64,000 nucleotides of DNA, from NCBI RefSeq assembly GCF_000027125.1, contig NC_017627.1; one strand, written 5' to 3'. The position numbers and the translations under genes are program-made. The DNA is from Escherichia coli 042 (lineage in GTDB: Bacteria; Pseudomonadota; Gammaproteobacteria; Enterobacterales; Enterobacteriaceae). Shown here one piece after another: positions 19,911 through 55,342 of the stretch. The first letter of the stretch is position 1. Each line of letters begins with the position of its first letter. The notes under the pieces are model-generated. The model ran no database searches. It saw nothing but the letters and a program-made list of their open reading frames with translations, and was not told the DNA's origin.

Positions 19911-22900
19911 TCAGTCTCCGCCCAGGGTTTTCTCTTTCTGCAGGTCACGGACCATATCCCGCTCCATCTGCTGCAGACGCTCCTGCAGCAGATTTTCCCG
20001 GGCAACCTCCCGGACCGCTTCCCGCTCCCGTTGTGATTCACGCAGCACACTCTCCGGCAGTGCGGTTTCCCGTTCAGAAGTGGCAGTCCGGTCACGTTCC
20101 TGCCCGGCAATCTCCCTGACAGCCTGCTCTGTTTTGCCATCCGGCAGGTCAGGTTTGTTCTCTGCCATTTTACGGACAATTTCATCTGCGCGACGTTCCG
20201 TTTCACGGCGGATGGCCTCTTCAGCCTGCCGCTGTGCCAGCACTTCAGCTGTAACCGGTTCACCATTTCCGGCCCCCGGCTGGACGCTGTTATCCGGGAT
20301 ATCCCCCCACACGCGGCCACCGGTGATGGCACCGGGATTCCACGGACGACCTTCACCGGCAATTCTCACCACCACACCGCTGTCAGGATTATCACGGGCA
20401 ATCCGGACACCATCCTGCATATTATCAGCCAGCAGGCTTTCTCCGTTACGGCTGCCCTGCAGGGCCACGAACTGCGCATCCCCGCTGCCCTTCACCCGTC
20501 CTTCACCGCTGAATCCCCGCAGCCCGTTTCCGTCATCCGTGGTCAGTGGGTTCAGCCAGATACCGGCGGACCTGCCGTTACGGTCAAACGCCGGCAGTGC
20601 CACATACGGCTGCGGATATTTACGTCCCGGTGCAATAAACCGTGCAGGGCTGTCTCCCCCGGCCAGCCCTGCCTGACGGAGAACGGCACGGCCTGCCGCC
20701 ACGTCCCGCAGTTCCCGTGCCGTACTGAACAGCCGCTCTGCATTCATGACCTCCCGGTCCGGTTTCGGTTCAAACACATCGTGGGCTGTTCCTTTCTGTA
20801 CGGCATTGTTAATGGCATCCGTCCAGCCCTGACGGTTATCGGTGTACACCTGCACATGCTGCTTCATACGCGACAGGGCCACGTAGGCTGACTCAAAGCC
20901 TGCCATCAGTTTCCGGTTACCTTCCGTGCCTTCAAGCGCGATGGCAAAGGTTTCACTCGCCCCCTGCGCACCGTGGGCGGTGATGGCATAGGCCAGGTCA
21001 ATATGTTGCTCTGCCCGCTCCTGTCCGGGGCGAATCACCCGGGTCTGCTGTCCGTCCGACAGCGTGACACTGTCACCGGAAACCGCTGTCACCGTCCAGA
21101 CGCTGTTGGCCACATAACCGCGCTCCCGGTCACTCTTCGTGAAGCGCATCCGGTCGCCGGTTCCCACCCGGATGGTGTCCGGGGTGTACAGTGTGACGCC
21201 TTCAGCCACCGCCTCCCGGGGCGAAATCAGCCGCGTGTTACCTTCCGCATCCTGCAGGGTTATCAGCCCGTCATCCTTACTGACACCGGCAATCCGGTGA
21301 TACACATTATCCACCAGGGCAAGGGCATCCGGGTTATTCTCCCAGGTGGAGAGACGACGCAGTTCCCCGTCGCGTATATTCGCTGTATTCAGGACAGGCA
21401 CCATGACCTGCTCTTTCCCCAGCTCACCGGCCTTTTCCCGTGCATCATGAATCATGCTGTTCAGTACGCGCCGGTCCTCATTCAGGTGCGTGACAATCAG
21501 CGTCTGCTCCCGTGCTTCCGGTGTCCTGCCGGTATAGTCGCGGACAATGGCTTCATACAGTGTCATGGGGACATCCGGGAAAGCCTCGCCTTTCAGCATC
21601 GCCTTCTGCTGCGCTTCTGCCAGTTTCGCTTCCTGGCTGTGACTGAACTCCGTCACGGAGTGCTCCGGTGCCCATGCGCCCTCCAGACGTGGCACCTGAG
21701 ACGGTTTCACACTCTCAAGCCCGGACAGTGCCCTTTCCACATCCCGGTTAATCAGGCTGTATACCGCCTCCCGCAGTTCCGGCGTCTGACGCACAATCTC
21801 CTTCATGATGACCACATCGGCAGCACTGCGCGTCTGCTGGAGACGGAAAGGCTGACCGGGCGCGATGGCCTGCAGCTGGTCCGTGTCACCGCTGGCCACA
21901 GCACGACCGCCACCGGCCGCAATCAGGGCGTATGCCCGTGCCATGTCGGTATTGCCCACCATTGAGCTCTCATCGAGCAGGAACAGCGTGTTGCTGAAAT
22001 CCGGCGTTTCTCCGCTGCGCTGCTGCAGCTGCGTGTCATGCAGAAAGGACGCCAGCGTCTGTGCATCCACGCCGGCGCTGCGCATCTCACCGACCGCACG
22101 GTGCGTGGGCCCCAGCCCCACAACTCGGGGACGCTCACTCGCCGGCAGCATGTTCACGGCTGACATCACCGCCCGGAACTGTGTGGTCTTACCCACACCG
22201 GCATAACCCTGTACCACCGTGAAACGGTCGGACGTTTCCAGTATCATGCGGGTGGCGGCACGCTGTCCTGATGTCAGTTTCTCCATGAGTTCGCCAGGTA
22301 CTCTCTCCATCAGCGGCGTGACCGCCTCCTTACCTTCGAGAATATGGCGAAGAATGCTCTTTTCTGCCTCATACGACGCACGGGAAACCAGCAGGCCTGT
22401 GCCATAGCCTTTTGCCACATCCACATACAGTAAATCACCGCGTTTTATCTGCGCATTGATTTCCCCTCCCAGTTCAGTAAAACCGGTTCCTTCTGCAGCA
22501 AACGACTTCGCCTCTGTCAGCAGGTCCACCATGCTGAAGGCCAGGTTTTTACTTTCCAGCACAGGAAGGGCCAGATGAATGGCCTGGTGTGCCGGCGTGT
22601 GCAGCCCGGCTTTCTGCAGACTGATAGCGGTTTCCAGCGATGTCTCACCGGCCCGCGCCTTTATCTGCTCAGAAACCACCGTAAAGGAGGGATGGCGGGC
22701 AAGTTTTTCCGCAGTACGGGTTTCATCCAGTGAGGAATACAGCCGGACATCACGACCGCTGCGGGCCAGACCGTTCAGGGTGGCGTTGTCCATTGCCATC
22801 TGTGTGACGGAGGCAAACACCGTCGCACTGTCACTGACGGAATGCCCGGGCGTTTCCACCCAGCCGTTCTCCAGCTTCAGTGCCGTGAACGGTGAATCGC

Positions 22901-25181
22901 TCACAGGCAGGGAGGCCGGTTCAGCCCGCCCCGGCACAACAACCGTCATCGCATCTTCACTGACGGATGCCACCTGCAGGCGGTCACCGCCGGAGACGCG
23001 GAGTCCGGGAATTTTCCCTGTCACCCTCAGTCGCTCGCCGTCTGCCACCGGCATTTTTTCCGGCCGGAACAGCGACCAGCTGCTGTCCAGGGAGGAAATA
23101 CGCACCACCTGCGTTTCGCCCTGCGCATCCCGCAGGGTCAGGCTGTGACTCTGCGCTGTCACCCGGTCTATCACATAGCGGTCATGACTGCGTGTCTCCG
23201 GGTTCCACTGCTCCATCACCATCCCCGGTCGGTACATATCCCGCAGATAACGGCTCCGGCTGTCCAGCCAGACCGGTGACAGTGCAGTCATGGTCACCTC
23301 AGGGTGTCCGAGCACGCCCTGCGTTTTCAGCTCACTGCGAATGGCCTGTGTCAGTATGGCCTGTTCCCGTACCCCGCTGACCTGTGCCACGCTCTCTTCT
23401 CCGGCTTTCACGCTGGCCGCAAAATCTCCGGCCAGCCGGGCATAGCGGACATTACGGTCCGGTTCACTGATGATGGTGGCCGGTCGCTGTTCTCCGCCCT
23501 GCCAGCGATATGTGTTCACCCCGGCATCCTTCATGGCCATCAGCGCACTGCCTGTACCGGTTCGCTGCCCGCTGTCGGTTATCAGGACCTGTACGTTATG
23601 ACGTGCGGCACCGTCCAGCAGGGTTAACGTCTCTTTCAGGGAGAGTTTTTCGCCCTGGTCGACGATAACAGTACTGCCCGGCGTGAAGGCCATGCCCTCC
23701 TGCAGCTGACGACGTCCGGTTATCAGCTCACCGGACAGCCGTTCATCCTGCTTCAGGTTCATCTGCGAGCGACGGTCAGCGGCGATAATCTGCATCTCCC
23801 GCCCCTGCTCCCGGGCCATCATGACCAGTTCAGCCACCCGCTCACGCTGCCCGGCTGCACCGCCCTGCCCGGAAACAATGGCCAGCGACGGACGGTCCTG
23901 TGCCAGAACACTGACCGCATCGCTGTAACCAGCCGTCCGGGGGACACTTTTCTCCGGATGTACGGTCACCCGGTTCTGTTTCATGATGTCACGACTGAGT
24001 GCCCGGACGGACAGCTCATCGAGCACATGAATTCCTGATGTGAACAGCCCCTTCTCACGGTCGAGGGGGATAAGCTGCTCACGACTGATGGCCTCATCGA
24101 TACCGGCGCGTGCCCGTTCAATCACACCATTTTCCGGCGGCAGTATACCGACCGTTCTGGCCAGCACGTCCGTGTACGTAAACTGCACTTTTCGTTCACT
24201 TAATCCGGCAATGGCCTGTGTCACCGCCTGCTGCACATCCGGCCCCTCCTGTGAAACAGCCCCGGGCGCCTGCGTGTGGGTCTCCGCACGCTGATCCGCC
24301 GCGTCACGATATGCCCGGATGTCGAACCCGGTTTCCTTCAGCGTCTGCATCCATTCAGCCATTCTGACTTCAGGATCGACGTGCTGTTTGGATTTTCGCG
24401 TATCCAGTGCCGCCACATCCCGGGATTTCAGTGAGGCCCCTTCACCGACGGCCTCCCGGATAGCCTGTGAGCGTCCGGAGAAGGCTTCCACCGGTACGCC
24501 CGGCATCTCCCACATACCGTGCTTACCGACCACTTCGGTTTCATAGCCCAGTGCCTCAACCTGCTCTTTCAGTTTTTCCCGGTAGAGCCTGCCAAAGGCA
24601 ATCTGATTAGCGTACACATTCTCAATGAACCCCGTTTTCCCCACTTTGTCACTGCTCAGTGTCTTCCACTCACCGTTATGCTGCGTGACATTAGCCACCA
24701 CCGCATGCGTGTGTAACTGTGGTTCCTGATCGCGACTGGTGTCGTGGTTAAACAGTGCCATCACCAGATTACCGGTCAGTACCGTTTCTGACTGTCCGTC
24801 CGTCATCACCCGTGTGGAGGCCAGCGCCTCCACCTGACGAACAGCAAAGTCCACGGCCTGGTTATGTGCATCAATCAGGCGCTTATCGCCACCTAACATG
24901 GCCATCATGGAGACACTTTTGGGGGCGGAGAAGGTCAGGTCGTAGCCGGGACGATGCTTATTACTGCCATCCTGCATGCGGCTTAGATCCGCTCCGTCCG
25001 GCAGCCTTCCCTCCAGAAGACGGGTAAAAACATCCTTATCGACACTGCCCTGCAGTCCCAGCTGTTCAGCCCCCCTGCCGGCCCAGCGTTCTCCCATGCT
25101 GCCCAGTACATAGTAATTATCCTTGTCGGTATAATAGTTACCGGCACTTCCGGCCGATCTGACCTGCGCGATACTCATCAT
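19911..25181 (-). CDS. traI: relaxase/helicase TraI
   Basis: 1756-aa product; relaxase N-terminus, helicase Walker A ..GYAGVGKTT..; start overlaps the traD stop. Confidence 0.95.
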   Translation of the reverse strand: MMSIAQVRSAGSAGNYYTDKDNYYVLGSMGERWAGRGAEQLGLQGSVDKDVFTRLLEGRLPDGADLSRMQDGSNKHRPGYDLTFSAPKSVSMMAMLGGDKRLIDAHNQAVDFAVRQVEALASTRVMTDGQSETVLTGNLVMALFNHDTSRDQEPQLHTHAVVANVTQHNGEWKTLSSDKVGKTGFIENVYANQIAFGRLYREKLKEQVEALGYETEVVGKHGMWEMPGVPVEAFSGRSQAIREAVGEGASLKSRDVAALDTRKSKQHVDPEVRMAEWMQTLKETGFDIRAYRDAADQRAETHTQAPGAVSQEGPDVQQAVTQAIAGLSERKVQFTYTDVLARTVGILPPENGVIERARAGIDEAISREQLIPLDREKGLFTSGIHVLDELSVRALSRDIMKQNRVTVHPEKSVPRTAGYSDAVSVLAQDRPSLAIVSGQGGAAGQRERVAELVMMAREQGREMQIIAADRRSQMNLKQDERLSGELITGRRQLQEGMAFTPGSTVIVDQGEKLSLKETLTLLDGAARHNVQVLITDSGQRTGTGSALMAMKDAGVNTYRWQGGEQRPATIISEPDRNVRYARLAGDFAASVKAGEESVAQVSGVREQAILTQAIRSELKTQGVLGHPEVTMTALSPVWLDSRSRYLRDMYRPGMVMEQWNPETRSHDRYVIDRVTAQSHSLTLRDAQGETQVVRISSLDSSWSLFRPEKMPVADGERLRVTGKIPGLRVSGGDRLQVASVSEDAMTVVVPGRAEPASLPVSDSPFTALKLENGWVETPGHSVSDSATVFASVTQMAMDNATLNGLARSGRDVRLYSSLDETRTAEKLARHPSFTVVSEQIKARAGETSLETAISLQKAGLHTPAHQAIHLALPVLESKNLAFSMVDLLTEAKSFAAEGTGFTELGGEINAQIKRGDLLYVDVAKGYGTGLLVSRASYEAEKSILRHILEGKEAVTPLMERVPGELMEKLTSGQRAATRMILETSDRFTVVQGYAGVGKTTQFRAVMSAVNMLPASERPRVVGLGPTHRAVGEMRSAGVDAQTLASFLHDTQLQQRSGETPDFSNTLFLLDESSMVGNTDMARAYALIAAGGGRAVASGDTDQLQAIAPGQPFRLQQTRSAADVVIMKEIVRQTPELREAVYSLINRDVERALSGLESVKPSQVPRLEGAWAPEHSVTEFSHSQEAKLAEAQQKAMLKGEAFPDVPMTLYEAIVRDYTGRTPEAREQTLIVTHLNEDRRVLNSMIHDAREKAGELGKEQVMVPVLNTANIRDGELRRLSTWENNPDALALVDNVYHRIAGVSKDDGLITLQDAEGNTRLISPREAVAEGVTLYTPDTIRVGTGDRMRFTKSDRERGYVANSVWTVTAVSGDSVTLSDGQQTRVIRPGQERAEQHIDLAYAITAHGAQGASETFAIALEGTEGNRKLMAGFESAYVALSRMKQHVQVYTDNRQGWTDAINNAVQKGTAHDVFEPKPDREVMNAERLFSTARELRDVAAGRAVLRQAGLAGGDSPARFIAPGRKYPQPYVALPAFDRNGRSAGIWLNPLTTDDGNGLRGFSGEGRVKGSGDAQFVALQGSRNGESLLADNMQDGVRIARDNPDSGVVVRIAGEGRPWNPGAITGGRVWGDIPDNSVQPGAGNGEPVTAEVLAQRQAEEAIRRETERRADEIVRKMAENKPDLPDGKTEQAVREIAGQERDRTATSERETALPESVLRESQREREAVREVARENLLQERLQQMERDMVRDLQKEKTLGGD

Positions 25182-27532
25182 CAGAAATCATCTCCCGGCT
25201 CAACATCCTCCCCACGCTCCCGGTGCACATTAATGTTCACCTCTTCACGACGCTGCATCTGCTGCTGGATGTCCGGATGATTTTCCTGTTGCCATGCCTC
25301 ATAAGCGGCCATATCCACCACTTCACCGGATTCACTGATCCCGGGTGGCAGTTGCTGTTCCATCTCTTCTTCCGGTTTCATTTTCAGCTCCTGCTCGATC
25401 CCCCCTGCCGGAACACTCACACCTGCATCTGACTTCTTATCATTGATGACAGAAGACACTGGCTGTTGTGACTGTTGTGACTGTTGTGGCTGTTGTGGCT
25501 GTTGTGGCTGTTGTGGCTGTTGTGGCTGTTGTGGCTGTTGTGGCTGTTGTGGCTGTTGTGGCTGTTGTGGCTGTTGTGGCTGTTGTGGCTGTTGTGGCTG
25601 TTGTGGCTGTTGTGGCTGTTGTGGCTGTTGTGGCTGTTGTGGCTGTTGTGGCTGTTGTGGCTGTTGTGGCTGTTGTGGCTGTTCAGCCTGAGTTACGTCT
25701 TCTCCGGAGGCAACCTCCGGTTCGAAGAGGCTGGCCATCTGGCGACCTTCTGCTTCCCTTGCAGCAAGTACGGCACTCAGACGGTTCTCCATTTCCGGGT
25801 TGATGTCACGCGGAATAAACTCCGGAGCGACCTTCGGTCGTGTCTGATATTTCAGGGAGAGTTTGACTGCCGGATACGGTCCGGGCAGAGTGACATAGCA
25901 GGTCAGATCCGGCAGAGACTGAATGTCGGAATAACTGACCAGCGTCTGACGCTCCATATCCTTACCGGTCGATACCCCGTCACGTACCGGGTCAGCACCG
26001 TAAGAATACTGCTCGCTGGCTTTCAGGTGCTCTTTCTCACCAATTTCACCGGCAGCGAACTCTGCAATCTTATGGCTGGGAGAACGGAAAAAGGCACGGG
26101 TGTTCATGACGTCAAACAGCGTGGCCGCCGCTTTCTCACCGTAGATATCTTCCAGCTGGGCATAGGACTGGATACCAAACACATAACAGCCACCGAACTT
26201 ACGGGCTTCCGGCAGGATCTCCACCAGGTCCGGCAGTTTGTGTAACGTGGGTAACTCGTCACAGAAAAACCACACACGACGATTACGGTTTTCTCCCATT
26301 GCCAGCAGACCACGAATGGCAATGGACAGCCACATGGAGATCACCGGCTTCAGGGAGGCATGGGTGTCGGCATTCGACGAGATAAACAGCCAGCCGTTTT
26401 TCTGATCTTCCCGGACACCACGCATCCAGTCACGGATGGTAAAAGACTCACCGTTATGCTCAATCCCCTGCAGGTAACGGATGGCTTTCACGTAGTTGGT
26501 CAGCACAGCACGGATGGAAATCGCCGTTTTCTCAATTTTCTCTTCCACCAGGTTGGCTGCCGGTGAATTACGCAGGAAGGTACGCAGTTTTTCAATTTTG
26601 ATGGAAAGCAGTGTGTCCACCAGTTTGCTGTAGCTGCGGTTGGGGTCATTACGCATCAGGTACGCCGCTTCCGCAAAAATGGTACGTCCTGAACCCTGCC
26701 AGAACGGGTCCTCTTTTGTGCCCATCGGGATCAGCGTGTTCGCGGTATTATCAAAATCCGGCTGTGTCAGGCACTCCTTCCACAAATCCCAGGCGGCACA
26801 GCGGGCATCCAGCGGATTCAGGATTTTATCGATGGAGGGATCATAGTAACTTTTAACAAATTCCCCCGAACGGTCATAAATCACCACCATATCTCCACGC
26901 TGACGGGCGTAGTTGGCCAGACGACGGATAACTTCCGACTTACCGGCCCCGACCGTGCCGTGCAGACAGAAGTTCTGGATTTCGGAATCCCGGATAATCG
27001 GCAGGTCGCCAATCCGTATATCGGAGTCCTTGCCGTCTTTTTTCAGCATCCGGGCAACATCTTTCGGGTTTTCCGTCAGCTGACGACCACCTGTAACTTC
27101 ATTTTCGCTCTGTTGTTTACCCTGACGCCCCAGAATCCAAGAGACAACAAAGAAGGTGATCAGGCAAATAACCAGTGCCACGACAGACGCCAGAACGAAT
27201 GCGGACCATAGCTGCTCACCGCACCAGATCATATATTTATCATGCAGTACCTGGGCAGCGTTCATCCGGAAGGTTTTGCCGTAATACTGGATCTCATATA
27301 CTGGCTGGGACTTGATTAAATCCCGCATGCCTTCCAGCGTGGTACACCACCAGTAAATACAGCCGTTCACAAACGTCTGCCAGCTTATTTTTACCCATAA
27401 AATCAGACCAACGAGTATCCAGAAAAAAATAAACAGGCAGTAAAGCATGATATTGGCGATCTGGCTGAACATGCGGATACGCATGGACGCAATCTGACCG
27501 CCCTGGGTCATATCCTTTGCGTTAAAACTCAT
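25181..27532 (-). CDS. traD: type IV coupling protein TraD, with expanded C-terminal QQP repeat
   Basis: 783 aa; N-terminal TM segments, Walker A ..GTVGAGKS..; C-terminal (QQP)n array and acidic tail. Confidence 0.95.
25461..25682. repeat. about 24 tandem copies of a 9-bp unit (GGCTGTTGT/GACTGTTGT) encoding the TraD (QQP)n/(QQS) tract
   Basis: Perfect 9-bp periodicity visible in the sequence. Confidence 0.9.
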
Positions 27533-27582
27533 GATGAAACTCCGGGAAAATCTGGAACAGGGCAGAAAAGGATGATGTGGGG

Positions 27583-28320
27583 TTAATTCACAGAAACAGA
27601 CCAGGTGTACCCTGTATGCCGGTGGTGATACCCGCCTGCAGTCCTGCCGGAAGAGACCTTCTCTGTAACAATGTCAGTCAGGCGCAATACTTCAGACCAG
27701 TCACTCCCGTGCGGAAACTGGATCTGAATAAAAAGGCGTACCCGTTCACGGTGATCCAGAACTGTGTCCGGTTCATAAAAACGGCCACTGTCAGGAGAAA
27801 CACGGGACGTTTTATTGATGAGATCATACTTATCGGCAGGAGACTGCGATGACAGAGACCAGGTAATATTTTCGCCCTGATGACCATCAATACGACTGCT
27901 CCCCGGCGTCCATGCAATTTCCTGCGCACTCGCCACGATGATCTCCCTGGAGACTTCTGCCAGCTTTCTGGGTGTACCGAATACCGGTGCCAGCACACAC
28001 AGGGACAACAAATTACAGCTGACCGCTTCCGGTTTAAGCGAATTGCTCCCGGATTTTTCAGGAAAAGATATTTTTGTCAGTATTTCAGTTAATTCCTTAT
28101 GCCTGAGAGAATTAATAAAGTACATGATAAGCATCATGAGAAACAATATAACAATAAGCCCTCCGATAACCACTAAAAGGTTAGTATCAATATTATTGCT
28201 GTACAGATAGTCTTTAGTGGTCACTGTATTATCCTGTATCACCGGGGGGTATTCAGTTACAGGCTTCTCAGTAAATTGATTATTCTCACCAACATATTCA
28301 GCGATATTGTCTGATGTCAT
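27583..28320 (-). CDS. hypothetical single-pass membrane protein inserted between traT and traD (about 245 aa)
   Basis: Start [10 protein letters not shown].. with SD GGAGAAA 8 nt upstream; one TM helix [22 protein letters not shown]; 5-prime half is AT-rich. No recognisable family. Confidence 0.55.
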
Positions 28321-28522
28321 AATGACTTTCTCCGGAAGATCCCGACTTCGCCGGCAACACTTCACGGTCGCACAAAGAATTTGCACAACCGCTCAGTGTT
28401 TTCATATTTATTTCGGAAACGCCGGGAGGTGACAAAATTTATTTTGTTACATCCCGGGGTTGGACAACGAGCAACGCGAGGCGTCAGCAAGGAGGCCGGT
28501 CAGATCAGCCTCCTGACGAGGT

Positions 28523-29254
28523 TCAGAGAATATTTGCGATTGATTTGGCCAGCTGGTCTTCGAGAACAGGCTTCGCCTCTTCAAATTTCAGGTTAACCTT
28601 GTTCGCATTTGAGACCACACGGGTCTGGTATTTATGCTGGTTACCCGTTTCAGTACTGGTCTGAATTTTCGCACCGGATGTGCCCTGACGCAGGGCGGCA
28701 ACATTATCCGTTGTCACCGTTGCCTTAGTACGCTCTGCAATCTGTACATCCGTGATCATGGTATAGTTCACATCTTCCACCATCGCATCTGCAGCCATAC
28801 CCACCAGACCGGCAGCAAGGCCTACACCGAGTGTGGCACCGGCAGAATTTGAGTTATAGCCGGTAATACCGGCACCTAACGCTGCACCAACAGCTGCGCC
28901 TTCATAACCACGGTTCAGCCATCCCTGAGACTCCCGCAGATCCATCTTATCAGCCTTCAGCACATTCGCCTGAATCCAGTAGTAGGCTTTATCCGGAGAA
29001 GTCACCACCTGATATCCTTTTGCTTTCACAGCATCAGCAATTTTGCCCTGCAGCCCACTCATGTCTTTATCAGACGTGTTTTTGATCTGCAGAAATACCG
29101 TGCGTTCGCTGTCGGGTTTAAGCCAGATGGTCTCACTCATCTGAGTCTTCACCTCAAGGTTACGCTTCTTGATTGCTGTGCTCATCGCACCACACCCTGA
29201 AAGGGCCAGAGTGGAACTGACCAGTGCAACCATCATCAATTTTTTTGTTTTCAT
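28523..29254 (-). CDS. traT: surface exclusion lipoprotein TraT
   Basis: [26 protein letters not shown].. lipobox; 243 aa from the internal start. Confidence 0.9.
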
Positions 29255-29285: not shown

Positions 29286-29789
29286 TTATCGCCTGTCATC
29301 ATAGTCCTGCCAACAAGTCCCAAAAGTATTTCCTGCTGAATCAAATCCTCCATGCATAGCTAATCCTGTTGCCGGATTAGTACGATAAAAATCCACATAA
29401 TCAAAATTCACATCATCAAAATCCAGATGCAAATCTTCATTAGTTTGTTCATTTACCTGAGATTGCATCCATTCTCTTACACTTACACAACCACTAATTC
29501 GCCTTAATTCGTATAGTGTACCAATGATAAAAACCATCAGGCTTAATAACGGAGAGAGTAAGGAAGATAATGGCATCAGTATATACCAAACGCCTTTACT
29601 GAATTTAAACTCATCCGACACATGCCGTTTTTTTCGTATTTGAGAAAACAACCATATAAACAATCCCTGCCATAGTACAATAAAGCACAGGATAAAAATT
29701 GTTTCGGCACTCCCCCAATCAGCCAGATAACAGGCAATGAACTGTATCACCGTCACCAGAGCAATATGAGCTAAATTTTTCATTATCAT
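29286..29789 (-). CDS. traS: entry exclusion protein TraS
   Basis: 167-aa hydrophobic protein between traG and traT. Confidence 0.75.
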
Positions 29790-29803
29790 CTCCCCATACG
29801 ATA

Positions 29804-32626
29804 TTATTGCTTGTGCTTATCCTGATACTCCTTTGCTCTTTTCATCAGTTCCTGTGGACTGTCAGCACCAGGCATTCTTTCCTGACCCGATTTTTCTTCA
29901 TTATATTTATTATTCTGAGATAATGCCTCTGTTTTATGGTGATTTTGTAGTTCAGAATACTGTCTTCCTACAATATTTTCTTCGCCACGTATGCTGCTCT
30001 GAGTATCTCCGATATTGCCACGATATTCTGTGACCATATTATCAACCTGATGTTTTACATCATTACGGATATTACTGTCCTGCGTTCTTTGCTCAATAAT
30101 GGCCTGATGTCCCTGATGGTCAGCAATAATATTCTGGCTGCCACCGCCCGAAGGTACGCTCTCCATTCCTTTACCGATGTCCCCACGGGATTCACGCCAG
30201 GCATTATCAACACCAGGCTGTACCTGTTCCTGCACAAAAGACCACGCCATAGCCCGACGGCGTTCTGCAATCTCCGGCGAACTGGTATTTGTCAGAATAG
30301 CTTCTGCATCCTGCGGTGCGCGTTTCATCACATACTGTGCAAACTGTTGCGACAGGTCTTCACTCATCTGCCCGCTCATGCTTTCAGTACGGGAGGCCAT
30401 TTCCGCATATTCATGGCTGCGGGTCATATTCGTCGTGTACTGGTCGTAACTCTGTTTCGCTGAGTTCAGGGCTGCAGACAACTGATCCACACGGGAATCG
30501 GCATTATTGTCCGTATGGCTGCCGGATTCACTGACCTTGCGACTGGTAAAGTAATCGCTGGCCTCTTTAAAGTCTTGTGTAGCCCTGGCATCGATATCAT
30601 GGCGAGCATCATGGCTGGCCCGTGAACCACTGCTGGCCTGATGCGCATCCTCATCACTCCAGTCAATACTTGCCCGACCACCACCTCTAACACCTGCGCC
30701 ACCACCAACACCAAGAATTTTAGGTTTAACCCCCCATTCAGCATGAACATCGCCATACATCCCCGCAGAACCTCTCGTACTTCTTGATGCCAGTTCTCTT
30801 GTTGCCTGCTCATTACTGATATTATGCGCCTTCGCATAGCTTTCCACTGCACTGCGCATACGGCTGGCCATCATGGAGTCCTGTGCACTCATGGTGCTGT
30901 CAGCGCCACCGGTGACAGAATCACTGCTCCCCCGGTTAGAACCAAACTGACTGAGCGAGTTCCAGGCACTGGCAATACTGCTGCTGAAACCATGCAGGGC
31001 ACTTTCTGCTCTGTTCGACGCCTCCCGGGCCATTTCCTGTTGTGCCGCTGCAATCTGACGCGTTGCATTGATACCAACCGGTAACCGGGACATCGCTCCG
31101 CTTGCATCCATCACCATATTACCGTCACGGGTCTGTGTGGCAGTTGCGCCACTGCCGGTCTGGTACATCATCTGACCAAACGACGTGGTGCTGTTGGTGC
31201 TCCAGCTGAAGCCGTTCACGTTTTCCGTCTGCATGTTGCCGTAGGAGTAATTACCGTCAACCACACTGCCTGCTGCACTGGCCGTCGGACTGATAGAGGA
31301 AGAGGCGAAGTGGCTGTACACGCTGGAAAAACCTGCGCCAAGGCCTTTTACCATCATCCATGACAACGGGGGGATCATGGCTGAAAGATACCCGGCAGTA
31401 GAGGCCAGGTCAGAGTATTTCAGCTGTATCTGAGAGAGTTCAGACAGCACGACCGGCGCACCATTCATCTTCGCATAGAATGTCATGGCACTGTTCAGAA
31501 TGGCATACAACAACGGCCAGGTCTGCAGCCACATCAGGGCAAACACATAGCCTTTCAGGACGGACAGTGTCAGTTTGTTGAAGACAGCTGCCAGTACCAG
31601 AAGCGGGAAAATACCAATGGCAATTCCCGTCAGGATAGTCTGTACCATTGGCAGGTTTCGCATTGTCACATGACCGATAGAGACATGCGCCAGACGTTGC
31701 TTCTCCATCGATGACGTGGTGGCCAGATTCACCAGGCTGGCGGTGTCACCATTACGGGCGGCATTACTGGTGATACCCTCTTTCAGGGCATTCATGGTGA
31801 CGTTCTGGCGCATAATCTGGCTGGCAGACTGACTGGAGCCGTAGAAATAACTGTAACTGTCACTGACCAGTTGTCTGAATAACAGGTCCGGGTCCGGTCT
31901 GCCGCCAAATATCTGCTGCACATAATAATGCCAGGTCTTGCCTCCCGTCTTTGTATCGAGATTCAGCCTGTCTTTCAGCGTGACCGACGCATCCTTACAG
32001 GTTATGAAATTATTATTGTTGTCATAAACGCCCCGTAGCGGGCTGGGTCGGGAAAAAATCAGCGTGTAGGGGTCAGCGGAGGCCATCAGATCTTCCAGCG
32101 TGTATTTATGATTCAGGTAAATATCACCCAGCACGCAGTTCTGGACGTAGTCCTGGAACAGATTGATGATTTCCGGATTCCGGGACAGGAAATCGGTGCT
32201 TTTCACAATCAGATTCGCCCCGAACAGCATGCCTGTCTTGCTGTAGGTGACGCTGTCCGGTTGGGTGAATATCATCTCGTAGCTGACCACCATCGCATGC
32301 CCGATACGTGTCGTCAGTGAAAGTGGCATCGCCAGACCGACCGGCACATTATCCACCCGATGGACTTTGACCAGGTCACTGTTATCAATAATCTGCACCG
32401 ATGTGCGGACATTAACCAGCAGGCTGATAAGCACAAACACCGCCACCCAGCCCAGTAAATCCATCACGTTGTGCCGCTGTACCCACATAAAAGCCACAGC
32501 AACAACAGACAGGGTGAGCGCAATTTTTTCAATGGAATCCCAGGTCCGGGTACTCATAAATGCTGCAATGGCATTCAGGTTGTTACGCAACCACTCACCA
32601 CCGGCAATCACATAAACTTCATTCAC
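29804..32626 (-). CDS. traG: mating-pair stabilisation / entry-exclusion partner TraG
   Basis: 940-aa polytopic N-terminus plus large periplasmic domain; position in tra order. Confidence 0.9.
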   Translation of the reverse strand: MNEVYVIAGGEWLRNNLNAIAAFMSTRTWDSIEKIALTLSVVAVAFMWVQRHNVMDLLGWVAVFVLISLLVNVRTSVQIIDNSDLVKVHRVDNVPVGLAMPLSLTTRIGHAMVVSYEMIFTQPDSVTYSKTGMLFGANLIVKSTDFLSRNPEIINLFQDYVQNCVLGDIYLNHKYTLEDLMASADPYTLIFSRPSPLRGVYDNNNNFITCKDASVTLKDRLNLDTKTGGKTWHYYVQQIFGGRPDPDLLFRQLVSDSYSYFYGSSQSASQIMRQNVTMNALKEGITSNAARNGDTASLVNLATTSSMEKQRLAHVSIGHVTMRNLPMVQTILTGIAIGIFPLLVLAAVFNKLTLSVLKGYVFALMWLQTWPLLYAILNSAMTFYAKMNGAPVVLSELSQIQLKYSDLASTAGYLSAMIPPLSWMMVKGLGAGFSSVYSHFASSSISPTASAAGSVVDGNYSYGNMQTENVNGFSWSTNSTTSFGQMMYQTGSGATATQTRDGNMVMDASGAMSRLPVGINATRQIAAAQQEMAREASNRAESALHGFSSSIASAWNSLSQFGSNRGSSDSVTGGADSTMSAQDSMMASRMRSAVESYAKAHNISNEQATRELASRSTRGSAGMYGDVHAEWGVKPKILGVGGGAGVRGGGRASIDWSDEDAHQASSGSRASHDARHDIDARATQDFKEASDYFTSRKVSESGSHTDNNADSRVDQLSAALNSAKQSYDQYTTNMTRSHEYAEMASRTESMSGQMSEDLSQQFAQYVMKRAPQDAEAILTNTSSPEIAERRRAMAWSFVQEQVQPGVDNAWRESRGDIGKGMESVPSGGGSQNIIADHQGHQAIIEQRTQDSNIRNDVKHQVDNMVTEYRGNIGDTQSSIRGEENIVGRQYSELQNHHKTEALSQNNKYNEEKSGQERMPGADSPQELMKRAKEYQDKHKQ

Positions 32627-50091: not shown

Positions 50092-50838
50092 TTACTTAAC
50101 ACCATAAAATTCACGAATTATACTTAATAGCGAATCTATTTCTCCTTTATAGATACATGACACTCTGAATAAATCAAAGTGTTCAAAAAATTCTTTTATT
50201 TTCCGTTTAACTGGTTTAATTCGATCCTCAGATGCTCTGTCTGTAATACCCAACTCTCTGGCAATTGTTGCGTGACCAACACCCAGCATATAAAAAGAGA
50301 AAACAACCAATGTCCCTGGAGAAAGATCATTCCATATCGTTAATTTATCAGAAGTATTTGTATTACTTCCACTCTGATTTAACGCAAAAAATGGATAATC
50401 AGGAAACGGATTAATTTGCCATAAAACAACAGATTCGTCATTATAAAAAGAAACATTCTCCATCCTTATCTGATAGATTTCGCCATGAAAATTAAAACGA
50501 CGACAAAATGCAGAGCCATGTCCAAGAGCCTGGCATTCCAGTTCAAGTGATGAAAGAAAAATTTCAACCTGCAGACGTATATAACTCTCTCCGGATAAGG
50601 GTTTATCTTCTCTGGAAAAGAGTTCAATAAAAGCCCCATTGGCATAAAGGATTTTCCGGTTTTTGTTACGGACACAAACCGGAACGGGAGAATTTCTGTA
50701 GATATTCTGAACGTTAAGGATGTATTTATTTACAGATTGACTGTTAAGTGGCCTTTCTCTACGATCCAGCGCACACATAGGAACCTCCGTTAAGGATTCT
50801 ATGGACAGTCGATGCAGGGAGGTCTGAACTCCCTGCAT
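50092..50838 (-). CDS. traJ: tra operon activator TraJ
   Basis: ORF between traY and traM; start codon lies within a perfect 11-bp hairpin (50811-50839). Alternative start at 50778. Confidence 0.8.
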
Positions 50839-50890
50839 CGGCGATTTTCAGTTTCAATTTTTAACGTGGCATTAACCACGTAATTAATAT
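50800..50890 (+). ncRNA. finP: probable FinP antisense RNA region (antisense to the traJ leader and start)
   Basis: Hairpin GATGCAGGGAG-GTCTGAA-CTCCCTGCATC covering the traJ ATG, followed by a T-rich tract. Ends not determinable. Confidence 0.4.
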
Positions 50891-54662: not shown

Positions 54663-54824
54663 CTACTTACCGCCGGATTCGTAAGCCATTGTTGCCGTAA
54701 CTTCCCTGTATCCGTCCTTCAGCCGGACTTCGCACAGACGATTCCGGGTCAGGAATGTGAATATCAACAACGTGCAGCACACGATTAATACGCACCAGAT
54801 AAGGGCGTTTCCCGGTAGTTTCAT
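54663..54824 (-). CDS. hok: Hok-family membrane toxin (hok/flmA/srnB-type)
   Basis: [53 protein letters not shown]; overlapping mok-like frame 54667-54882 in the ORF track. Confidence 0.85.
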
Positions 54825-55342
54825 GGTTTACTCCTCCTTGCAATTTGCACGGTAAGAGGCCATACTGACGTGGACTAGACATGCAGAGGCCTCGTGGGTT
54901 AATGAAAAATTAACTACGGGGCTTTTGTCCTTCTGCCACACGACACGGTAACAAACCACCTTCACGTCATGAGGCAGAAAGCCTCAAGCGCCGGGCACAT
55001 CATAGCCCATATACCTGCGCACTGACCACACTCACTTTCCCTGAAAATAATCCGGTCGTTCAGCCAGTTCACGGGCTATCAGTTCATCCGCAAACAGTGG
55101 TGCATGCCTGTTGATACGTTTCTCCAGATTCCGCCGTCGTACCGCAGCCTTACGTTCTTCGCTCCAGCGGCGCACCGGGCGGTCAGAAATAAAATCCAGA
55201 CAGACCGCATACCCTGCTCCGGCAACCCAGCGTGACATAACGGATGCCGGTGCAGGCTGCCCCGCCTCCACCACTTCTGAAACCAGTTCATGCTCGCCAG
55301 GACAGGGATAAGGCAGTTTCCAGCGCAGTGAGTAACGCCACT

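Follow-up and report, generated by a model that had tools for sequence, protein, structure and literature searches.

Plasmids of the IncFII and IncFII(K) groups (R100/R1-like, ST131, pKpQIL-like) are main carriers of extended-spectrum beta-lactamase (ESBL) and carbapenemase genes, and most of the mechanistic knowledge of their conjugation comes from plasmid F. The closest described relative of the gene treated here is an open reading frame (ORF) of plasmid R100, known since that plasmid was annotated, which a 2009 paper calls YhfA with the remark that F has no similar ORF (PMC2762410). No functional study of R100 YhfA was found in the searchable literature. The one further mention found is in a preprint, according to which traC is linked by co-selection, in ST131 plasmids, to a gene for a hypothetical protein that it calls yhfA and that may be this ORF. 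We analyzed the yhfA-type gene at positions 27583..28320 (minus strand) of a 64,000-nucleotide stretch from Escherichia coli 042 (contig NC_017627.1), the whole of which is referred to as the window. Purifying selection acts on this gene, which is real and not a chance ORF, and it is best explained as an accessory gene that many F-like transfer operons have long carried, not as a recent insertion.

Identity and distribution of yhfA

The coding sequence (CDS) consists of 245 codons and a stop, and its product, a WP_000199910-like member of the R100 YhfA family, is a "hypothetical protein" in RefSeq. The call is based on ORF prediction and translation, on annotation of the same place in plasmids pF8704-2_1 and R100 and on the ratio of nonsynonymous to synonymous substitution rates (dN/dS). 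The initial annotation had pointed to a roughly 990-bp gap between traT and traD, carrying an ORF with a good Shine-Dalgarno (SD) sequence and start codon that is additional to the gene order of F, and all of this was confirmed. The distance from the traT stop (28523) to the traD start (27532) is exactly 990 bp, and direct reading of the sequence places an SD motif, GGAG (28330..28333, minus strand), 9 nt before the yhfA ATG. The traT-traD gap holds no ORF in F (NC_002483; 252 bp), in the F-type plasmid pVNCEc57 (252 bp) or in pSLT (376 bp). An upstream GTG start, giving a 267-amino acid (aa) ORF, was dropped because the extension is a hairpin region conserved in plasmids that lack the ORF and the SD motif belongs to the ATG.

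The window protein is 96.7% identical in aa sequence to YhfA of R100 (NR1; WP_000199905). Both proteins are 245 aa long, similar over their full length and alike in architecture, and the two genes occupy the traT-traD interval on the tra strand. Only a few substitutions separate the two copies. Private to the window protein is G115 (codon 27976-27978), where nearly all relatives from the E. coli branch have C, and N47 stands where close relatives have D. We are highly confident that the gene is an R100-type yhfA with the architecture described below. It is already catalogued and thus, as a sequence observation, not new. The present analysis extends the family to Klebsiella IncFII(K) plasmids and contributes a predicted topology, a confident fold model that has no characterized relatives and the contrast in evolutionary rate with the neighboring genes.

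A survey of traT-traD intervals shows that the ORF is not peculiar to the window. When the interval was searched with megablast, the whole 990 bp was found in 1770 of the 4029 plasmids that match the traT flank. Among 5426 complete E. coli genomes, 1209 (about 22%) carry the yhfA ORF, and nearly all of its copies (1398/1402) are plasmid-borne. Its presence or absence follows two flank lineages, at approximately 91% versus 96-99% identity. With tblastn the family was detected in 3541 plasmids of PLSDB; of these, 3521 are typed as conjugative and 1898 originate from Klebsiella. A scan of genome contigs gave just two loci (L014, L015), with 98% identical copies in assemblies labelled as a Lachnospiraceae metagenome-assembled genome and as Acinetobacter idrijaensis; we suspect that contigs of enterobacterial plasmids contaminate these assemblies or were mis-binned.

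When 1.84 billion representatives were searched exhaustively with a profile built from E. coli sequences alone, nothing but close relatives and fragments came back, and the divergent branches were recovered by tblastn on plasmids. Profile matches reached E = 1e-157. The gene always occupies the interval from traT to traD, on the tra strand. All three divergent branches occupy the same traT-traD slot: a 225-aa homologue (P0102; ~50% identity) in a divergent E. coli plasmid, a 230-aa homologue (~28%) in pRHB06-C17_3, and a 229-aa homologue (WP_013023831; about 18-22%) in Klebsiella IncFII(K) plasmids such as pKF3-94. The Klebsiella ORF shares with window YhfA the slot, the strand, the approximate size, the acidic tail, a single transmembrane (TM) helix, the C-terminal domain and the motifs PGxxRxD, W, GG and GY, and differs from it in its low sequence identity and in having six cysteines in the C-terminal domain instead of two. 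Across the branches 15 residues are invariant: L105, V109, P139, G140, R143, D145, W154, G179, P184, Q201, L214, G229, G230, G237 and Y238.

The description of the ORF as inserted is not supported, given the finding of homologues of 18-50% identity in the same slot of separate F-like lineages, including Klebsiella IncFII(K). The AT-rich 5' half, from which a foreign origin had been proposed, is real (GC 0.355 over 28000-28300, against ~0.49-0.53 in the 3' half of yhfA). The proposed origin did not find support: neither an insertion sequence (IS) nor a repeat is present at the junctions, the presence or absence of the gene goes with two old lineages of the flank, and what the AT-rich half encodes is the TM helix together with the disordered tail.

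In pRHB06-C17_3 (CP057989; L008, 4463-4966) a gene with a DUF2726 domain starts 7 nt past the stop of the yhfA homologue and precedes traD; it was seen again in a second locus (L006, 1430-1738). It matches a PHROG family (phrog_14167, function unknown, E 5.6e-10) and has no PADLOC match. It may be a second cargo gene of the traT-traD slot.

The traT 3' region and the divergent segment

The region immediately past traT (28339..28522, minus strand) folds into three strong hairpins, with a minimum free energy of -82.6 kcal/mol over 184 nt (z = -5.4). It is 87-92% identical in plasmids with and without the yhfA ORF, F-type plasmids and pSLT included, and is probably the terminator of traT or a stabilizer of its mRNA. 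Since the hairpins are conserved whether or not the ORF follows, yhfA is separated by them from traT and situated on the traD side of any termination or stabilization that they may provide.

In an alignment with the F-type plasmid pVNCEc57, the ~184-220 nt that follow traT are common to both types (at the same 87-92% identity), and from there the sequences diverge completely up to the start codon of traD. Plasmids without the ORF align only to bases 1-184 of the traT-traD interval used as query. The divergent stretch is an R100-type-specific segment of ~805 bp in the window (27535..28338, minus strand), which holds the SD motif, the CDS and the 50-nt spacer between the yhfA stop and the traD start, versus an unrelated ~66 bp in F. 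No remnant of yhfA was detected by alignment in the traT-traD gaps of F or pSLT. In the ST131 plasmid pMB7542_1 (L011, 1700-2479) the normal stop has been lost through a 3'-terminal deletion of 15 bp, and the resulting ORF of 259 aa overlaps the start codon of traD; the Foldseek list mentioned below includes a Salmonella "YhfA" of the same length, 259 aa.

Protein architecture and predicted fold

The single TM helix and the C-terminal part of about 175 aa that the initial annotation had described were both found. The lone strongly hydrophobic segment comprises residues 48-66 (mean Kyte-Doolittle hydropathy 3.2), and 175 residues follow residue 70. The TM helix is encoded by codons 46-70 (28111..28185, minus strand); in the AlphaFold2 model the helix begins at residue 46, with predicted local distance difference test scores (pLDDT) of 75-87 over residues 51-70. 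It is preceded by an acidic N-terminal tail containing Pro and Tyr (codons 1-45, 28186..28320, minus strand), which is the most variable part of the protein and is predicted to be disordered (pLDDT below 50 for residues 1-43) and, from its charge, periplasmic. The net charge of the tail is between -3 and -7 in all intact members of the family. Every intact member also has 2-5 Lys/Arg residues among the 15 that follow the TM helix, against 0-2 before it. YhfA is thus predicted, because of the positive-inside rule, to be a bitopic inner-membrane protein with a periplasmic N-tail and a cytoplasmic C-terminal domain. The conserved globular domain (codons 100-245, 27586..28023, minus strand) was delimited from alignment A4 and the AlphaFold2 model; its Lys/Arg-rich flank and its cysteines, which number 2-7 across intact members, are consistent with the predicted cytoplasmic location.

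A shallow alignment gave a pLDDT of 43, and the model used here was obtained with 24 sequences, the Klebsiella and pRHB06 branches having been added. By blocks of ten residues, residues 100-245 then reach a pLDDT of mostly 85-96, with lower values in a loop at 161-192. The modelled elements are beta 102-112, alpha 117-135, beta 140-148, beta 152-160, the loop, beta 193-203, alpha 208-223, beta 228-233 and beta 236-244. The C-terminal domain is therefore confidently modelled as two successive beta-alpha-beta-beta units that form an unclassified alpha/beta fold of ~145 residues.

The search for homology and structural similarity that had been proposed led to the identity with R100 YhfA, and to no characterized family or solved structure. 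Neither the single protein nor the 24-sequence profile matched a family in Pfam, NCBIfam, PADLOC, PHROG or the PDB sequences beyond TM-helix noise, to which we assign the matches to Orf78, OadG, phospholemman and CARF_TM. The predicted fold matches no solved structure, and structural matches were to uncharacterized proteins only.

The order of secondary-structure elements fits that of GyrI-like domains, the topology of which is 2x(beta-alpha-beta-beta). YhfA could accordingly be imagined as a membrane-anchored GyrI-like (duplicated SHS2) ligand-binding or regulatory domain, which would serve to sense a small molecule, to sequester one or to bind to a protein, gyrase for example. GyrI-like and effector-binding proteins do occur low in the Foldseek list (ranks 23, 33, 43 and 49). 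These structural matches are not significant, however, and no internal repeat is detectable: hhalign of the two halves of the C-terminal domain returned a probability of 2%. We regard this explanation as improbable.

Selection and evolutionary rate

For yhfA, dN/dS is 0.23-0.34 at dS 0.07-0.16 and 0.15-0.22 in comparison with the 50%-identical homologue, and the C-terminal domain is more constrained than the N-terminal 99 residues. These ratios, together with the conserved position across deeply diverged F-like plasmids, indicate far more than a chance ORF. At similar dS, the dN of yhfA is about 3-18 times that of traT or traD (for traD the first 1500 nt were compared). In the E. coli comparisons the 0.23-0.34 of yhfA stands against 0.04-0.14 for traT and traD; relative to pRHB24-C10_2, for example, dN is 0.056 for yhfA and 0.005 and 0.007 in the traT/traD comparison. 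On the larger distance to Klebsiella, YhfA retains 22% identity while TraT and TraD retain 82-85%. The N-termini are variable and mosaic (P0029, P0039).

Such relaxed constraint relative to the neighbors could be read as a sign of a decaying or functionless ORF that hitch-hikes in the tra operon, more so as F and pSLT are without yhfA at no obvious cost and disrupted copies exist. Variants of 213 aa carry frameshifts at several different positions and read the alternative frame at 27678-27998 (minus strand; a 106-aa ORF). Most of them are singletons from raw-read assemblies, and they are probably sequencing errors or sporadic pseudogenes. An IS-truncated form of 180-184 aa makes up a large cluster, in plasmids which lack the upstream tra genes. 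In contrast, the large database clusters (P0001 with 1341 members and P0002 with 2474) are composed of intact full-length proteins, every informative comparison yields a dN/dS well below 1, and 15 invariant residues and a confident predicted fold are maintained across 18% identity. Decay is thus a very improbable explanation.

Possible roles of YhfA

An exclusion or defence-related role had been suggested at the outset from the neighboring exclusion genes. YhfA would then serve in conflict in the recipient or resident cell, as an extra exclusion, immunity or anti-phage layer which, for example, stops DNA or male-specific phages from crossing the inner membrane on their way in. The gene does adjoin traS and traT, it is the fastest-evolving gene of the neighborhood apart from traS, its N-termini are mosaic, and in one lineage its homologue is followed by the DUF2726 gene, the DUF2726 domain being nuclease-like. 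TraS/Eex proteins resemble YhfA in being inner-membrane proteins of the same neighborhood which evolve fast and show allelic diversity. They differ from it in that there is no homology (no Pfam or NCBIfam match), that YhfA combines one TM helix with a globular domain, and that YhfA alleles do not track TraS alleles: one plasmid (L001) carries a 99% identical YhfA with an unrelated TraS, while pVNCEc57 (L002) has a TraS 98% identical to that of the window and no yhfA.

Searches for known defence or phage families point in the same direction. With PADLOC-DB v2, window YhfA, P0102 and the homologue from Klebsiella gave no match and the pRHB06 homologue one weak match (E 0.006), confined to residues 36-95 around the TM helix; none of these four branches matched a PHROG family. 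The prediction places the conserved domain in the cytoplasm, yhfA sits past the traT hairpins, and its presence and absence form two old, stable flank lineages and not the rapid turnover typical of defence cargo. The fast evolution speaks for the proposed role, and we keep a conflict function of this kind as a live, if unlikely, alternative.

The uncoupling of YhfA and TraS alleles, along with the position of the gene past the traT hairpins, leads us to favor an accessory role on the TraD side over exclusion or defence. The conserved domain is predicted to lie on the cytoplasmic side of the inner membrane, which is where TraD, TraC and the relaxosome are active. A link to the traD side is also seen in the 50 nt between the yhfA stop and the traD start and in the overlap of the two genes in pMB7542_1, and the co-selection described for traC would, if it concerns this ORF, be a hint in its favor. 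YhfA would be made together with TraD from transcripts which pass the traT hairpins, and its membrane-tethered cytoplasmic domain would act on the DNA-transfer side, that is on the TraD coupling protein, on the inner-membrane ATPases of the type IV secretion system (T4SS) or on the docking site of the relaxosome. It would modulate conjugation and be dispensable for it, like the trb genes of F, and it would not be a specificity partner of TraS in entry exclusion. Taken as a whole, the explanation of yhfA as an R100-type accessory gene with a TraD-side role has in our estimate not quite an even chance of being right; the mechanism itself, an accessory to TraD and DNA transfer as read from sequence, is put forward tentatively, as clearly less than an even chance.

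Two described systems offer partial analogies. The trb genes of F lie, like yhfA, in the tra operon on the tra strand, and they too are membrane-associated, dispensable in the laboratory and variably present. YhfA is unlike them in having no Pfam or NCBIfam match of any kind, in its larger size and in its folded cytoplasmic domain. TraJ of the IncHI plasmid R27 is, like YhfA, a membrane protein encoded beside the gene of the coupling protein, and is the functional analogy that we favor, although a positional one alone. TraJ is polytopic, unlike YhfA.

Several points weigh against a TraD-side role. No experiment or homology ties YhfA to TraD or to any function, and the vicinity of traD counts for little, since tra operons preserve their gene order throughout. 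Conjugation of F and pSLT is efficient although they lack yhfA, hence any role of YhfA must be dispensable. The 3-18-fold higher dN suits a conflict function or relaxed constraint at least as well. The predicted topology draws on the positive-inside rule alone, and a promoter and terminator consensus scan gave nothing convincing, so that no promoter was identified.

A location at the cytoplasmic face of the inner membrane would also suit fertility inhibition, in which the membrane-tethered cytoplasmic domain would act against unrelated plasmids in the same cell by inhibiting their coupling protein or T4SS, as has been reported for PifC and FipA. Both the self-transfer of F without yhfA and the fast evolution of the gene would be in accordance with it. 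YhfA shows no similarity to known inhibitors in Pfam or NCBIfam, though, and the context offers nothing in support; by analogy alone this seems to us a rather remote prospect.

Neighboring genes and other features of the window

On the minus strand, yhfA is preceded by traG (29804-32626), traS (29286-29795) and traT (28523..29254) and followed by traD (25181..27532; 783 aa), which has a GGAG of its own at 27543-27540. The coordinates are those of the ORF list, and the gene names were taken from the near-identical plasmid pF8704-2_1. In pF8704-2_1 and R100 traI directly follows traD, and the ORF coordinates of the window agree with this.

Within traD, 24.9 tandem copies of a 9-bp unit (25460-25683, minus strand) encode ~25 QQP tripeptides near the C-terminus of TraD. 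Plasmid F has a TraD of 717 aa and R100 one of 738 aa, compared with 783 aa in the window, where a repeat already known to vary has thus undergone a long expansion. In F (L016, 5967-6592) and pSLT (L013, 5545-6170) a vapBC toxin-antitoxin pair is situated on the opposite strand between traD and traI. A reciprocal pattern of yhfA and this vapBC pair was ruled out, as pVNCEc57 has neither.

Rfam matches above the gathering threshold were found in the window at 18103-18289, 22256-22332, 31822-31907, 62556-62652, 50772-50881, 54822-54993 and 1577-1693. The families matched are AS-pc02, AS-traI, AS-traG, AS-pc01, FinP with the traJ 5' untranslated region, sok and the ALIL pseudoknot, AS-pc01 and AS-pc02 being antisense to pHK01 genes according to Rfam. 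None of these matches overlaps the yhfA ORF.

Conclusions

The gene yhfA, absent from F, encodes a conserved but fast-evolving membrane protein just upstream of the coupling-protein gene. About 22% of complete E. coli genomes carry it, as do nearly 1,900 Klebsiella records among the plasmids searched. It is possible, if on balance doubtful, that YhfA is a functional component of R100-type and Klebsiella IncFII(K) conjugation which has escaped notice through its absence from F, the model plasmid. As a membrane-tethered cytoplasmic domain, with a fold that only uncharacterized proteins share, it would either tune TraD or the T4SS or form a new layer of plasmid-plasmid conflict, its fast evolution then being the mark of an arms race and not of neglect. 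As a knockout target yhfA is cheap and well defined: the lack of a phenotype would mean that it is dispensable, and a phenotype, if found, would add a component to a textbook system.
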